From the IMG/VR virus record IMGVR_UViG_3300018471_000116: a DNA stretch of 5,168 bases; one strand, written 5' to 3'. The translations under genes and the position numbers were made by a program. The stretch's first letter is position 1. Every line of letters begins with the position of its first letter. Positions 1 to 5,168 of the stretch are shown here, piece after piece. The notes under the pieces are model-generated. The model saw only the letters and a program-made list of their open reading frames with translations. It was not told the DNA's origin and did not search any database. The stretch is from a virus. Lineage: Duplodnaviria; Heunggongvirae; Uroviricota; Caudoviricetes.

Positions 1-14
1 CGCTCTTCCGATCT
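1..14. other. Sequencing adapter remnant (Illumina TruSeq, reverse complement of AGATCGGAAGAGCG); not biological sequence
   Basis: Positions 1-14 read CGCTCTTCCGATCT, identical to the 3' terminal 14 nt of the TruSeq universal adapter (...ACACGACGCTCTTCCGATCT). Recognised from established knowledge of adapter sequences. Confidence 0.9.
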
Positions 15-47
15 CCTAAATACTTACGCCATCTTTACCCTTACAAG

Positions 48-1166
48 TTGTGGAGAAAAAGCACATCTACACGAGATCTGAATGAGGCGAGAAGATTCAG
101 AAACCATCTGTTATTAGAATGGGAGGAACTAAAGCGGAAACATAATCCTGATAACCCCGAAAGGAGGTTACAAAAAGCTATTGAATCCTTACATTCAGAG
201 GCAAGGGCCAATAAAAACACGCAAAGAGCCGTAAAACGCGGTTATGCATCGCCTTCCCTATGCTTAATACGTGACGAATACGCCGAATGCTACAGAGAGC
301 GTCGTTCATACTCAACACTACAGAAATCAGCAAGGGCCGTTGAGCTATTTTTACAAAGCATTCAGAAAGATGATATTCATATTGAGAAAATAGGCAGACG
401 GCTTGTAACAGTATTCTTAGATGACCAGAAGCAACGAGGAGCAGCCGATCAATCTCGTCAAAACTGGCTTACATGCTTAGGATCGCTCTATGAATTTGCT
501 AAACGCCGTTATGACGGAATACCAGACAGTAACCCTTTTCACGGTCATAACCTCGAAGCACGTCGCACAATCGAGAGTTATCAACCGTTTACACCTGAAC
601 AAATGCAAAAGCTACTTGATGCAGCGGAGCCGGAGATCAGAAATATTATTTTAATGGGCTTGTTTTCAGGATGCAGATTAGACGAACTGGCAAGCCTGAA
701 AAAGTCAGAGGTTGTAACTGTGGAAGGAATACGCTGTTTTTATATCAGCAAGAGTAAGACTAAAGCAGGGATCAGACACGTTCCGATACATTCAAGACTA
801 TCGATTATTGTCGATGAATATTTAAATCATAATTATGGTGAATATTTGTTCCCTCACTCGAACAAAGTAAAAAGAATCGACGGCAAGAAAGGCCCGTTCT
901 ATTCTCAAGCATTCTCACGTTTACGTCGTAGCGTCTTGCCAATCGCTACAGATAGACAATGCTTTCACAGCTTGCGCGGGATGTTTATCACTTGTCTTGA
1001 TCGTGCCGGAGTGCCTGAACAGCGGATCGGAGCCATTACCGGACATACAGAGCAGAGAGCTAAAACAGAAGCCTTTCGCACCTACTCACAAGGGGCAAGC
1101 ATTCCAGAATTAGCTGAATATGTAGAATTAGTAAAATATGAATTAAATATTGATTTTAAGGCGTAA
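48..1166 (+). CDS. int: Tyrosine site-specific recombinase (phage-type integrase); start codon uncertain (TTG at 48, frame open back to the adapter junction at 15)
   Basis: 372-aa ORF. Catalytic-domain signature is readable in the translation: R210 in GCRLDEL (nt 675-677), K237/K239 in SKSKTKAG, H307-x-x-R310 in FHSLRG (nt 966-977), H333 in TGHT, and Y346 in AFRTYSQG (nt 1083-1085). Spacing closely parallels lambda Int (R212, K235, H308, R311, H333, Y342). No in-frame ATG occurs before residue 186 and no clear Shine-Dalgarno precedes the TTG, so the annotated start is tentative. Confidence 0.85.
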   Translation: MWRKSTSTRDLNEARRFRNHLLLEWEELKRKHNPDNPERRLQKAIESLHSEARANKNTQRAVKRGYASPSLCLIRDEYAECYRERRSYSTLQKSARAVELFLQSIQKDDIHIEKIGRRLVTVFLDDQKQRGAADQSRQNWLTCLGSLYEFAKRRYDGIPDSNPFHGHNLEARRTIESYQPFTPEQMQKLLDAAEPEIRNIILMGLFSGCRLDELASLKKSEVVTVEGIRCFYISKSKTKAGIRHVPIHSRLSIIVDEYLNHNYGEYLFPHSNKVKRIDGKKGPFYSQAFSRLRRSVLPIATDRQCFHSLRGMFITCLDRAGVPEQRIGAITGHTEQRAKTEAFRTYSQGASIPELAEYVELVKYELNIDFKA

Positions 1167-1174
1167 AAAATCAT

Positions 1175-1192
1175 AGGCGCTTCATTGCGCCT
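1175..1192. terminator. Hairpin between convergent genes; probable intrinsic terminator, mainly for the minus-strand operon
   Basis: Perfect inverted repeat AGGCGC (1175-1180) / GCGCCT (1187-1192) with 6-nt loop TTCATT. On the minus strand the stem is followed by AUGAUUUUUU (complement of 1165-1174). On the plus strand it is followed by the weaker TGTCCTATTTC. It lies in the 30-nt gap between the int stop (1164-1166) and the 218-aa ORF stop (1197-1199). Confidence 0.5.
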
Positions 1193-1926: not shown

Positions 1927-3828
1927 TTAGTTAACGCTACTCTGTCCTGACAACGTGCTAAGAATCAGATTCGAACTAAACTGATTGTTGTTCGCTCTGA
2001 TCTCAGTGCGGATTAAATCCTGAAAGCCGGGACCGTTAGGGATGACGTTAACAGAGATCATATCACTCGGCACCGTAACCTGTGCATTCACGTTAACAGG
2101 AGTTGCGTATTGACGTTGTAGGCTTACAGTCGGCTGATAGGCTTCTGCTTTACGTGCAACAAGGGTTGATCCGTAGCTGTTAGCATTGCCATTAATTAAA
2201 TCAGTCCACCACCCTGGAACGCCGGACTGTGTTTCCTCACCGCGCACAATACGCCCTACATCTTTCGTATCGAGTCCAGTTGCATAACGAATACCTTCAT
2301 TGATAATCGTTGATGGCGACCATTCCCCATCTGTAACAGCGTCCATAACCTTTTGTGTCTCAGGTCTGTTATCATTCTCACCACGGCTAAGATGTTTATT
2401 AATCCAGCTTGTGATTTGATTCCCGTAAGAAGTCATAGAGGTCAGTAATACAGCGCCTTGTTTAGCCAAATCCCCGAACGATGCACCAACACCATAAGCT
2501 GCATTCTGTAAGGCTTTGCTTTCTTCCGGTTTGAGTGCTGGCATGTTGGCTATGCCATCAAAGAAGCCCAAAATAGCCTGATTCGATAGTCCATCTGTCA
2601 GACGGTCAAAGGCTGTAGCTGTCTTGTTAGCTGCGCGATATTGCTCTTTCTGTGCTTCTGTCAGTAGCTGCCCGTTGTTTTCCATATCAACCATCGTTTT
2701 ACGGAACTCTTCCCCATCACGGGAAAACATCTTGAGATAATGGCTGGCATCGTCTGCTAATGGTTCGATCAGGGATATGATGGCTTCTTTAGTCATTCCT
2801 CGGCGTTCACCTTCTCTCACCACGTCTTGCAGGAGTTGCAGCGGTCGCCCCTGGTAGGAAGCTATCTTATCTTTGTTCCATGCAAAGGCATTCTGAATAT
2901 CATTTAATGATCCTTCCCCGCCTCGCCACTCTTTTTTCTTACTATCCCATTCAGCAGTTCGGCTTTGATGACCAATGCGTTCGTTTAAGTCTTTGATATT
3001 GTCAGTGGTCTTGTCCACGCTTGCACTTGATACACCGTTTGCCCTCCCCCAATTAACCATTGCAGCCACCTGGTTGGAGTCTGCGCCTACCAGATCGCTC
3101 ATCTTCTGCAATTCCATACGTTCACGGGCTTTTTCCATTCCAGCAGATACAGCCATACTTCCTAAGCCAACGGCAGCGCCGCCGATAATGCCACCAACAC
3201 CGCCCATCATTAACGCGCCACCGCCGCTAACACCTTCTTTGTGGAGCTTCTTAGAAGTAACTGGATATACACCCCCAGCGGCAGCATTACGACGCGTAGC
3301 AGCGGCTGCGGCTCGTCTTTCTAATGTGATGCGGTCACGGATCAGGGCATTCATCTTCGCTTGCGATATAGCGCCGGATTCATAGAGGCGGGTTTGTTCC
3401 TTAATGTAACGTAGAGCATCGTGATATTTCTTAATATCCATCCCTTCGCCATAGCGGGAATTGTTCTTGATGCCTTGTAACTGGCGATATGATGCAAGGC
3501 GCTTGATCTCTGCCTTTTCAGCAATTGAGGCTTGTTTAGCCTGTGCTTTAGCGAGGTTTTTAGCTTCCTGTAGCTTCTGTTTAGTGCTGGCTTTAGATGC
3601 CTGTGTCTCAGATTTAACAGCCCGCTTAACATGCTGATCATGCTGGCGCTGAATCTCTTTTCCCAGCCTCTGTAAATCTTTCTGACGTGCTGCCGCCACT
3701 TGCACAGGTTTGATCCCCTGCATCTTCTTTTGTAGCTTATCCACTTCATTCTTAGCTTTCTGTAAGCTCTTGAAATCAGTGGTAAATGTCACAACATTAC
3801 TAATTCGTGAGGCGGTAATTTCTAACAT
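1927..3828 (-). CDS. Large phage structural-type protein, 633 aa: coiled-coil N-terminal region plus Gly/Ala-rich hydrophobic segment; tape-measure-like (alternatively pilot/ejection-type) protein
   Basis: ATG at 3828-3826 with AGGGAAAC about 10 nt upstream on the minus strand; TAA stop at 1929-1927. Residues about 20-170 are K/Q/A/E-rich with heptad-like character (e.g. KLQEAKNLAKAQAKQASIAEKAEIKR). Residues 171-186 are poly-Ala/Arg. Residues about 200-231 (GGGALMMGGVGGIIGGAAVGLGSMAVSAGM, nt about 3136-3231) form a Gly-rich hydrophobic stretch typical of tape-measure and pilot proteins. The C-terminal about 390 aa looks globular. Product call is by architecture, not homology. Confidence 0.75.
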   Translation of the reverse strand: MLEITASRISNVVTFTTDFKSLQKAKNEVDKLQKKMQGIKPVQVAAARQKDLQRLGKEIQRQHDQHVKRAVKSETQASKASTKQKLQEAKNLAKAQAKQASIAEKAEIKRLASYRQLQGIKNNSRYGEGMDIKKYHDALRYIKEQTRLYESGAISQAKMNALIRDRITLERRAAAAATRRNAAAGGVYPVTSKKLHKEGVSGGGALMMGGVGGIIGGAAVGLGSMAVSAGMEKARERMELQKMSDLVGADSNQVAAMVNWGRANGVSSASVDKTTDNIKDLNERIGHQSRTAEWDSKKKEWRGGEGSLNDIQNAFAWNKDKIASYQGRPLQLLQDVVREGERRGMTKEAIISLIEPLADDASHYLKMFSRDGEEFRKTMVDMENNGQLLTEAQKEQYRAANKTATAFDRLTDGLSNQAILGFFDGIANMPALKPEESKALQNAAYGVGASFGDLAKQGAVLLTSMTSYGNQITSWINKHLSRGENDNRPETQKVMDAVTDGEWSPSTIINEGIRYATGLDTKDVGRIVRGEETQSGVPGWWTDLINGNANSYGSTLVARKAEAYQPTVSLQRQYATPVNVNAQVTVPSDMISVNVIPNGPGFQDLIRTEIRANNNQFSSNLILSTLSGQSSVN

Positions 3829-3852: not shown

Positions 3853-3872
3853 TTATTGTTTGTTATTGTTTT
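3853..3872. repeat. Short AT-rich tandem direct repeat (TTATTGTTTG / TTATTGTTTT), with a third ATTGTTT copy at 3833-3839
   Basis: Read directly: 3853-3862 TTATTGTTTG and 3863-3872 TTATTGTTTT (9/10 identical). Spans the stop codon of the 65-aa ORF and the 5' leader of the 633-aa gene. Low complexity, so may be incidental. Confidence 0.3.
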
Positions 3873-4060
3873 TTAGAGCAATAATATTGGATTGCCTCAA
3901 AAGTGCTGCACCCAGTCTGAAACACACGCTGCCGCACATTATTTGCATCAATTGAAAGCATTCTGCATAAGGCACTGACATTGATTATTGAGTCATCGCT
4001 AATAGCTGCCAGTTCTTTTACAGACTTAAGAATTAATGCCTGTGAATTTTCTGTGTTCAT
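3863..4060 (-). CDS. Small hypothetical protein, 65 aa (possible small operon-leading protein; function unknown)
   Basis: ATG at 4060-4058, TAA stop at 3865-3863, same strand as flanking genes and exactly fills the gap upstream of the 633-aa gene (34-nt spacer). Weak purine-rich SD (GAGAGAAAACCA-ATG). No signal-peptide-like or strongly hydrophobic segment. Short length and weak RBS keep confidence low. Confidence 0.4.
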   Translation of the reverse strand: MNTENSQALILKSVKELAAISDDSIINVSALCRMLSIDANNVRQRVFQTGCSTFEAIQYYCSKKQ

Positions 4061-4211: not shown

Positions 4212-5136
4212 TTACGCAGCAGATCCGAAGATGATAGCTTGCGGAATGTTGTTTACTGGCAGATAAGATGTCTCAGTAACCACAGATGGGAATTGGAATT
4301 CATCCTTGATTAGATATTGGTGATGCAACACGGCATCTTGACCTAACTCAGCATGACGCACACCAACGCCGCTATGAAGCTGGTAACACTGTGCCGCTTT
4401 ATCCATTACCGGAACAATTGCGAAACCGTTCTCTCCGATGTGAGCAACAATCTCAGGAAACATTGACACATCAATAACAGTGATCCCACCAATCTGGAAA
4501 GAGTCATAGGCTGGGTTAGAATCAACCATACGGGTAAACAGGGCCGTAGCACTCGCATCGCCTGCATATTTCACCATGTCACTGATCAGCGGGTTAGATG
4601 ACAAACCATCAGCAGCAGTGCCAGCAGCAAAGATAATTACACCAGTTCGCTTTGCAGCAAGACCAGACCCCAGCTTTTCACTCTGTAAGCGCACCGCTTT
4701 ACGAATAGCAAGGAACGGGTTAACAGTAGTCGATGCAAAGTCGATAGCGGGTACCGTGGTTTTAGCCTGACCGTCGAGGAAGTCGAGATCACCTTGTCCG
4801 GCATATTCAGATTCAACTTTCAGGCCCAGCAGCGCGGTAATCAGATCCACTTCAACACGGTTTGCGTGTGAACGGTAATGAGCCTCAGAGAAATCATTAA
4901 CCGCTACCAGCATAGCATCAGAACGGTTTGGATATTGGCGGCTGTATTGTTCCAGGTCACGAGAAGTAACAGCGTTAATACTGCCGACGTGTTTCATCTG
5001 GAAAAGTTTGTTTGACCATTCCTGACGTTTAGAGGCGTTCCAGTCGCTTTGAGCGTAAGGCGAGGTTTCCCCAGCTACCTGCACAAACTGATCAATCAGG
5101 TCGGTAAGAAGAATGCTGTTTTCTGTATGATATTGC
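4212..5136 (-). CDS. Phage structural-type protein, 5'-truncated at the adapter junction (at least 308 real residues); major capsid or major tail/sheath candidate
   Basis: Uninterrupted minus-strand ORF from the contig edge to the TAA stop at 4214-4212. The first six residues of the six-frame translation (MCSSDL, 5153-5136) are encoded by adapter sequence, so the true N-terminus and start codon are missing. Composition is Ala/Gly/Ser/Thr/Val-rich with no P-loop or catalytic motif, consistent with a virion structural protein. Identity not resolvable without a homology or structure search. Confidence 0.7.
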
Positions 5137-5168
5137 AGATCGGAAGAGCACACGTCTGAACTCCAGTC
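5137..5168. other. Sequencing adapter (Illumina TruSeq indexed adapter / read-1 read-through sequence); not biological sequence
   Basis: Positions 5137-5168 read AGATCGGAAGAGCACACGTCTGAACTCCAGTC, the first 32 nt of the standard TruSeq adapter AGATCGGAAGAGCACACGTCTGAACTCCAGTCA. Confidence 0.95.

Follow-up and report, generated by a model that had tools for sequence, protein, structure and literature searches.

A tape measure protein of the phi92/phAPEC8 type with a Gly/Ala-rich apolar segment, encoded on a satellite-like island of Escherichia coli

The closest described relatives of the protein reported here are the tape measure proteins (TMPs) of the phi92/phAPEC8 group of E. coli myoviruses (Stephanstirmvirinae; PHROG 16051). 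In phi92, cryo-electron microscopy (cryo-EM) showed that the TMP is a trimer of gp134, of which residues 631-656 could be resolved in the interior of the baseplate, and that the product of the following gene, gp135, is the hexameric tube initiator (PMC13450770). According to a preprint on T4, gp29 starts with a coiled coil (residues 1-120) and ends in a C-terminal loop, with a transmembrane segment (207-246) and a helical bundle (273-518) in between; density seen where the distal tube is bound to the membrane is attributed to the transmembrane segment, and predicted transmembrane helices are described as a common feature of TMPs (10.64898/2026.03.06.709160). The hydrophobic stretch of T5 pb2 has been proposed as a channel-forming element that enters the membrane. 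TMPs are also found in phage satellites: the PLE satellites, which depend on Vibrio phage ICP1, possess genes for a TMP, a chaperone and a baseplate hub of their own. The products show 20%, 20% and 41% identity to the phage proteins and are selectively incorporated, yielding chimeric tails about 10 nm shorter (PMC12987554). Described in 2026, they are the first satellites reported to build chimeric tails with their own TMP, a strategy that the authors suggest may be widespread, noting putative tmp genes in other satellites (PMC12987554); a preprint describes a TMP in mycobacterial EPIP satellites. Here, we analyze a stretch of 5,168 nucleotides (the window, taken at its full length) from the IMG/VR record IMGVR_UViG_3300018471_000116, focusing on a 633-aa open reading frame (ORF) on its minus strand. 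We show that this ORF encodes a TMP, and we consider it probable that a Gly/Ala-rich segment within it is the part that inserts into the host membrane and contributes to a DNA conduit, and that the protein is built into the tails of a helper phage.

The assignment of the 633-aa ORF to the TMPs relies on both profile-based detection and matches to structurally located proteins. The ORF matched the PHROGs family phrog_16051, 'tail length tape measure protein', with an E-value of 3.6e-72 and nearly the whole profile covered, and the PDB entry 21vq_V, Phi92_gp134, with an E-value of 6.7e-49, where both the N-terminal motif and the stretch 206-632 were aligned. Its identity to phAPEC8 gp104 is 32%. 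A tblastn search revealed homologues in 134 phage records, mostly E. coli myoviruses of about 150 kb from the phAPEC8/phi92 group, many of them annotated as TMP. The gene lies just upstream of a gene whose product matches Phi92_gp135, and this order, TMP and then tube initiator, is the same in phAPEC8, phi92 and T4 (T4 genes 29 and 48). A tail assembly chaperone pair does not precede it: the 65-aa ORF found at that position is unrelated to phAPEC8 gp105/gp106, and this absence characterizes the locus rather than the protein. In RefSeq the gene is labeled 'hypothetical protein'; Rfam, PADLOC and NCBIfam returned no match for it, and neither Pfam nor fold searches detected an enzyme motif or fold. 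Judged by homology, the ORF is a contractile-tail TMP of the phi92/phAPEC8 E. coli myovirus type. An annotation made earlier from the letters of the window (the first-pass annotation) had attributed a DNA-delivery role to the protein and suggested a comparison with tape-measure families; the profile matches agree with that suggestion, and the role is supported by the homology together with the analogy to the tape measures of T4, T5 and TP901-1.

The architecture of the protein, detailed in Table 1, is also that of phi92 gp134 and phAPEC8 gp104, with which it shares the N-terminal motif, the apolar segment, the central domain and the C-terminal peptide. AlphaFold2, supplied with the family alignment, predicted 22 helices and a mostly alpha-helical protein. 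The N-terminal rod is strongly basic, with 39 K/R against 16 D/E between residues 19 and 183, and is only 13% identical to the phage TMPs. The first-pass annotation had described a long coiled-coil region at this place; the length of the predicted helices (45-122, 132-150 and 156-183) stands, but a crude, home-made heptad score was not above that of shuffled sequences, and the description was downgraded from coiled coil to long predicted helices. It had also placed RRAAAAATRRNAAAGG on the N-terminal side of the segment, exactly where it is found (residues 171-186, window 3271..3318); within this linker, R171, R172 and A174 are invariant in the alignment of island-type sequences (A6). The central region forms a helical domain that is confidently predicted over residues 230-410, and it contains the most constrained positions of the protein in an alignment of 43 family members sharing only 15-35% identity (A1): D276 is invariant in 43/43 sequences, while K279, D280, K297, G303, G304, P329, E355 and D360 are at least 90% conserved. 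This domain (232-420), the best conserved part of the family, matched neither Pfam families nor solved folds. Toward the end of the protein, conservation to the phAPEC8 type is again evident, with about 40% identity over the C-terminal 70 residues (about 25% to phage homologues in general) and 39% over the last 28, which provide the helical protein with the putative docking peptide expected of a TMP.

The segment itself was defined by composition. Reverse-complement translation of window positions 3136..3231 gives residues 200-231 as VSGGGALMMGGVGGIIGGAAVGLGSMAVSAGM, in agreement with the Gly/Ala-rich stretch named in the first-pass annotation. We compared the protein with 5000 shuffles of its 633 residues: the unbroken run without D, E, K, R, H, N, Q or P extends over 33 residues (199-231), a length that none of the shuffles equaled (mean, 11), and counts of 12 Gly and of 17 Gly+Ala per 30-residue window were reached in one and four shuffles, respectively. 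Bulky apolar residues (L, M, V and I) account for one third of the segment, and basic residues bracket it on both sides (K193/K194/K196 and K233/R235/R237). Its Kyte-Doolittle maximum over 19 residues, 1.63 at residues 204-223, is the highest in the protein, and the segment is also the sole minimum of an additive hydrophobicity sum (3.1, against 8.35 for the next best), as are the corresponding segments of phAPEC8 gp104 and T4 gp29. No other part of the protein is a candidate membrane segment. Small residues recur at i, i+4, forming the ladder S201-A205-G209-G213-G217-G221, in which GxxxGxxxGxxxG spans 209-221 and GxxxGxxxG starts at residues 209 and 213; at least three such positions, as in a transmembrane glycine zipper, are therefore present. 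The segment is thus real and non-random as an unbroken run of small apolar residues, and its hydrophobicity is moderate. A plus-strand ORF (2975..3385) overlaps the DNA of the segment and is a by-product of GGN/GCN codons; the minus-strand frame is favored because of its homology and the selection acting on it (see below). The same Gly/Ala codons explain the local G+C content of up to 0.54 at positions 3001-3400.

We then considered the segment across the family, which is small: an exhaustive HMMER search over 1.84 billion cluster representatives yielded 59 clusters. Almost every full-length member has its most hydrophobic window or its longest apolar run at about residues 160-285, in a stretch rich in Gly, Ala and Leu, and in the alignment of 43 members Gly/Ala-rich apolar segments are in register in every one, with a pooled composition of 23% Gly, 19% Ala and 11% Leu. 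With this shared placement, homology and analogy support the earlier proposal of a role in DNA delivery. The sequence itself turns over, identity to the phage homologues being 24%, and the apolar Gly/Ala segment is an ordinary hallmark of the family that adds one example to the known picture of TMPs. Its relative position along the chain is 0.34, close to that in phAPEC8 gp104 (0.40) and T4 gp29 (0.42). Comparison with an E. coli allele of 91% identity gave a ratio of non-synonymous to synonymous substitution (dN/dS) of 0.17 for the whole gene, which is under purifying selection; codons 196-232 of the same pair accumulated 7.7 synonymous and 3.3 non-synonymous differences, leaving a core of 30 residues unchanged.

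What distinguishes the protein from its phage relatives is the region just before the segment. Among the roughly ten TMPs whose genomic context was checked, phage copies carry a mixed-charge, R/E-rich insert of 56-67 residues before the apolar segment (for example, RRRIRRELEAEAKMRIRMRNRELRDIERNRKRE), whereas island copies carry a basic linker of 17-46 residues and are 26-46 residues shorter, a rule that every one of them obeys. Accordingly, the window protein is 26-29 residues shorter than the phi92 and phAPEC8 TMPs because it lacks this insert. A family member of 668 aa, by contrast with the island copies, sits within a complete phiTE-like morphogenesis module.

The locus also sets the protein apart from the phi92 and phAPEC8 TMPs, since its gene is located on a chromosomal island that has no gene for a chaperone, sheath or tube. 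E. coli chromosomes match the window at 99% identity; among 5426 complete genomes, 397 contain a match and 48 carry at least 80% of it, coverage being 100% in strains such as Combat11I9, D3, MS8345 and those of the FDAARGOS series. In E. coli strain Combat11I9 (NZ_CP021726.1), the genes lie in a 13.2-kb integrative element (positions 19825-33025 of L001, our handle for this locus, in which the window corresponds to 20001-25136). The element is bounded by a 22-nt direct repeat, TGGAGCGGGCGAAGGGAATCGA, which equals the 3' end of tRNA-Gly, and the two copies of this attachment (att) repeat are 13,179 bp apart, one of them 85 nt upstream of the start of the integrase gene in L001. Its genes encode the integrase (DUF6538 and Phage_integrase domains), the tube initiator, the TMP, a 65-aa helix-turn-helix-like protein, and a 343-aa capsid protein homologue followed by proteins of 127 and 65 aa; the set is completed by invertase and lipoprotein genes, a gene for a 208-aa helix-turn-helix protein that weakly matches phage replication initiators, and several other small ORFs. 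Near the gene of the 208-aa protein, a 1.5-kb non-coding gap contains three tandem 22-nt repeats (TCACAGTGACC(C/T)ACCCCCTAGC-like, L001 30155-30235) that could represent iterons in a replication origin. Within the att-bounded 13.2 kb we found no gene for a terminase, portal, protease, sheath, tube or fiber; the unannotated gaps contained no long ORF, and no unassigned protein of the island exceeded 127 aa. The 127-aa protein showed no significant similarity to the phAPEC8 head decoration protein, its equivalence being one of position and size. Adjoining the element in tandem, on the side away from tRNA-Gly, is another island (L001 3500-19700), which has a separate integrase gene, two arsenic-resistance operons and an ABC-three-component (ABC-3C) system.

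Related elements are present in other hosts. A core composed of genes for a protein of about 124 aa, a capsid protein of about 345 aa, a small protein of about 62-76 aa and a TMP of about 600-630 aa, with or without the tube initiator, recurs beside an integrase gene in a second E. coli type, in Klebsiella, Kluyvera, Buttiauxella, Citrobacter and Scandinavium, and in metagenomes; relatives of the TMP alone were found in Pseudenterobacter, Enterobacter and Cedecea. A single-protein scan of viral contigs returned only two long provirus-type contigs and one weak match. Two contigs with the same gene core, one of 14,281 bp with an exact terminal overlap of 30 nt (L016) and one of 14,403 bp with an overlap of 141 nt (L008), come from independent assemblies, and their circularity suggests that the element has an excised or episomal form. 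These contigs and the presence of the island in only part of the E. coli genomes are the only hints that it might be induced, packaged and transferred by a helper phage. The elements are mosaic. Two subtypes of capsid protein are paired with similar TMPs, as in the locus that carries the 91%-identical TMP beside a different capsid type (L014), and identities to phAPEC8 differ widely, from 63% for the tube initiator to 32% for the adjacent TMP and about 20% for the capsid protein. The tube-initiator gene, which is missing from the islands of Klebsiella and others, looks like a later acquisition.

Taken with the known tape measures, these data lead us to the following model, in which each step is conditional. 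Three copies of the TMP would fill the lumen of the tail tube, the C-terminal peptide (about residues 606-633) docking within the tube initiator and hub and the basic N-terminal rod being directed to the head. Before ejection, the modest hydrophobicity of the segment would let the protein stay soluble and fit the narrow lumen, the small residues of the segment allowing tight packing there as well as in the membrane. Once the sheath has contracted and the spike is lost, the TMP would be expelled with its C-terminus leading; the Gly/Ala segment, one third along the chain and with basic flanks on both sides, could then partition into the inner membrane, where several copies might pack through their small residues and help to form a DNA conduit. 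Membrane insertion and channel formation by residues 199-231 are thus proposed by analogy, and the same applies to the use of the TMP in chimeric tails: because the gene lies on a 13.2-kb island and not in a phage, we infer that the protein, together with the co-encoded tube initiator, would be incorporated into tails otherwise made of helper-phage parts.

Several of our results, and one from the literature, weigh against this model. Hydrophobicity is marginal, the Kyte-Doolittle maximum being matched by 746 of the 5000 shuffles (15%), so that the unusual trait of the segment is its unbroken stretch of small apolar residues rather than strong hydrophobicity; likewise, the additive Hessa-scale sum for the segment is about +3 kcal/mol. 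The ladder of small residues is no longer than composition gives, as 1763 of 5000 shuffles of the segment's own residues (35%) equaled or exceeded it; the Fourier power of Gly is not significant at period 3.6 (p ~0.12), nor at periods 4 and 7, relative to composition-preserving shuffles. The glycine-zipper periodicity that the first-pass annotation suggested checking therefore holds as a GxxxG pattern but not as a spacing beyond composition, and we describe the segment by its composition, not as a proven zipper. AlphaFold2 returned coil without helix for residues 189-228 (pLDDT 28-40), a result that neither supports nor excludes a helix in the segment, the model being a monomer without lipid or partners. 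As regards the satellite part, no match to a tail assembly chaperone was found anywhere on the island, and a distant-mode comparison of its two non-coding gaps with all phage records, which looked for packaging-site mimicry, gave nothing meaningful. In TP901-1, whose first hydrophobic region is essential, the authors favor chaperone binding over membrane insertion (PMC5099701). Finally, hhalign of the family profile against T4 gp29 gave a probability of 0.9%, and the comparison with T4 therefore covers layout and makes no claim of homology.

Within that scope, the two proteins are laid out alike: a helical N-terminus comes first, a single apolar segment follows at a relative position of 34-42%, and a helical domain leads to a C-terminal docking peptide; gene 29 is likewise followed by a tube-cap/initiator gene. 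The T4 segment differs from ours in being a classical hydrophobic helix (Kyte-Doolittle 2.2) that is not Gly-rich. T5 pb2 and the TP901-1 TMP are also tape measures with hydrophobic stretches proposed or shown to take part in envelope crossing, or essential for infectivity. They belong, in contrast, to non-contractile tails, and their hydrophobic regions, with two to six predicted helices, are both longer and nearer the C-terminus; T5 pb2 also carries a peptidase motif, whereas no enzyme motif is found in the window TMP.

The alternative that best withstands these data, and which we regard as unlikely though worth keeping in view, is that the segment is a tail-assembly patch that binds a chaperone or neighboring TMP chains and keeps the protein soluble or packed in the lumen, with no role at the host membrane. 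Marginal hydrophobicity and the lack of a predicted helix suit such an element equally well, and the TP901-1 authors proposed that hydrophobic regions may recruit the chaperone, the second region being dispensable for infection (PMC5099701). The structural work on T4 and T5, on the other hand, puts the equivalent TMP segment at or in the membrane, the island encodes no recognizable chaperone for such a patch to bind, and chaperone-patch and membrane roles are not mutually exclusive. We find it improbable that the segment is a flexible, low-complexity Gly linker between the rod and the C-terminal domain with no specific function, as its low-confidence coil prediction, its poor conservation and the non-significant order of its GxxxG motifs might suggest: flexible linkers normally hold polar and charged residues, of which the 33 residues of the segment contain none, and its bulky apolar third, the retention of apolar character in all 43 aligned members despite sequence turnover, and a core left unchanged while synonymous changes accumulate all argue for a constrained apolar element.

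A further alternative concerns the island rather than the segment, and we give it slightly less credence still. The island could be a defense element whose TMP is a decoy that poisons the assembly of phi92/phAPEC8-type tails, or an effector of abortive infection that damages membranes by means of the apolar segment. Interference with tail assembly is a known defense strategy, PLE11 targeting the phage TMP through Rta (PMC12987554, PMC11364771); TMPs have been reported to be toxic on expression; and the ends and central domain of the island TMP, which would contact helper parts, are its best conserved portions. Yet PADLOC gave no match for this protein, the TMP of the PLE satellite is a structural component, and the tube initiator and full-length capsid protein homologue encoded beside it fit the building of particles better than a decoy. 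Scarcely credible is a host envelope protein, suggested by the labels 'cell envelope integrity TolA family protein' in one RefSeq genome and 'MICOS complex subunit MIC60' for one homologue, or a microvirus pilot or podovirus ejection protein, the alternatives named in the first-pass annotation: the former labels come without any Pfam or NCBIfam match and full-length homology is to a structurally located myovirus TMP, the latter families gave no Pfam or PHROG match, and all homologues are TMPs or island proteins, none having been found outside tail-gene or island contexts.

Returning to the model of a TMP used in helper-derived tails, the element that carries the gene is not a prophage and resembles a satellite of the PLE kind. 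This reading is proposed by analogy and draws on the genes present, the att sites, the circular contigs and the precedent set by PLE: the element is small and integrative, possesses an integrase and att sites without terminase, portal, sheath or tube genes, and its structural genes have divergent counterparts in a candidate helper of the phAPEC8 type (TMP 32% and initiator 63% identical; capsid protein recognized by hhalign with a probability of 98.9%). As in PLE, a small element without a full set of virion genes encodes a divergent TMP and an adjacent tail-core protein of a virulent myovirus, with identities of 32% and 63% here versus 20% and 41% in PLE11, and in both cases the TMP is shorter than that of the phage. 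The differences are also clear: no homology to PLE has been established for the island, the chaperone of PLE was not found on it, host family and integrase type differ, and PLE uses the coat protein of ICP1, whereas the island encodes its own capsid protein homologue. In this last respect it resembles the cf-PICI, small integrative islands of Enterobacteriaceae with their own HK97-type capsid protein and with tails from a helper; unlike them, it has no detected portal, protease, small terminase or head-tail connector, and its structural genes are related to virulent myoviruses of the phi92/phiTE type. Three other classifications were considered and set aside. A cf-PICI proper is not matched by a capsid homologue and a possible decoration protein in the absence of portal, protease and terminase matches; a prophage tail module would be at odds with the lack of sheath, tube, portal and terminase within the att-bounded 13.2 kb; and a P4-like satellite was likewise rejected.

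More tentatively, and as a possibility that we rate below even, these elements may constitute an undescribed family of Enterobacteriaceae satellites of about 13-14 kb that exploit virulent phi92/phAPEC8/phiTE-type myoviruses, supply the capsid protein and the tail-core proteins themselves (the TMP, in some cases together with the tube initiator), and place small capsids on chimeric tails about one ring shorter than those of the helper. The short basic linker and Gly-rich segment would then be the satellite version of a DNA-entry device, possibly one that evades defense or exclusion systems aimed at the helper TMP. The length of the phi92 TMP, 659 aa at 1.5 Å per residue, or 989 Å, is consistent with 24 rings of 38.63 Å plus the initiator and hub; on this scale, the equation of a 26-residue deficit with about one tube ring is speculative. 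Our literature search, incomplete in its coverage, found no satellite linked to the phi92, phAPEC8 or rV5 groups. If the proposal is true, these satellites, by providing the capsid protein as well as tail-core proteins, would be unlike any characterized to date. An element of E. coli and Klebsiella with att sites, circular forms and homologues of capsid protein, TMP and initiator would make the idea of chimeric tails testable in a tractable host, and cryo-EM structures of the candidate helper phi92 already exist. The segment is of interest as well, since its weakly hydrophobic, Gly/Ala-rich sequence lies at the extreme of what standard transmembrane predictors accept and offers a test case for how such stretches stay soluble in the tube and still enter lipid, but its context on a satellite-like island outweighs it.

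Table 1. Features of the window, with positions counted from its first nucleotide and residues numbered along the 633-aa ORF.
Feature	Position	Strand	Basis
TMP gene, 633 aa, phi92 gp134 / phAPEC8 gp104 family	1927..3828	(-)	PHROG, PDB, identity, dN/dS
Conserved N-terminal motif, residues 1-30 (MLEITASRISNVVTFTTDFKSLQKAKNEVD)	3739..3828	(-)	45% mean identity to phage TMPs, 63% to phAPEC8 type
N-terminal helical K/R/Q/A-rich rod, residues 19-183	3280..3774	(-)	AlphaFold2 helices 19-37, 45-122, 132-150, 156-183
Basic Ala/Arg linker, residues 171-198 (RRAAAAATRRNAAAGGVYPVTSKKLHKE)	3235..3318	(-)	7 K/R against 1 D/E in 28 residues
Gly/Ala-rich apolar segment, putative membrane-insertion segment of the TMP	3136..3234	(-)	Residues 199-231
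Central helical domain, residues 232-420	2569..3135	(-)	pLDDT >90; 35% identity to phage TMPs
C-terminal peptide, residues 606-633	1930..2013	(-)	Aligns with phi92 gp134 ~631-657, the stretch seen in the baseplate
Tail tube initiator (Dit-like), 218 aa	1197..1853	(-)	PF21821, E 5.2e-28; PDB 21vq_N Phi92_gp135, E 1.6e-68
Major capsid protein homologue, 343 aa in full, 5' end cut by contig end	4212..5135	(-)	hhalign, PDB
Conserved 65-aa small protein between capsid and TMP genes	3863..4060	(-)	Helix-turn-helix-like by eye
Tyrosine integrase of the island, 406 aa in full, first 23 codons outside the window	15..1166	(+)	PF00589, DUF6538
Bidirectional terminator-like hairpin between the convergent integrase and tube-initiator genes	1175..1192	(.)	Both strands; consensus match only

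The remaining genes of the window are listed in Table 1. The counterpart of the tube initiator in phAPEC8, to which its identity was given above, is gp103. For the capsid protein homologue, hhalign of an island profile (A4) against the phAPEC8 major head protein gp114 gave an E-value of 1.7e-17 over 313 columns; the best PDB match is Phi92_gp124, and Phage_cap_E was recorded for homologues of the protein. The 65-aa protein encoded between the capsid and TMP genes shows the pattern ILKS...LC..L.I....VR.RIF and keeps its position in islands of five genera. It is not similar to phAPEC8 gp105 and matches no Pfam or PHROG family; it could be a regulator or a factor of packaging specificity.

Both ends of the window (1-14 and 5136-5168) are fragments of Illumina TruSeq adapters (cgctcttccgatct; agatcggaagagcacacgtctgaactccagtc). 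A megablast search of the window against phages gave matches only at the record ends of unrelated phages, which correspond to the adapter 33-mer. The capsid ORF, when listed as 313 aa (4212..5153), begins with residues MCSSDL, which are encoded by the adapter. At the other end of the gene cluster, the hairpin at 1175-1192 is GC-rich, has T-runs on both strands, and looks like a terminator closing the capsid-TMP-initiator operon.

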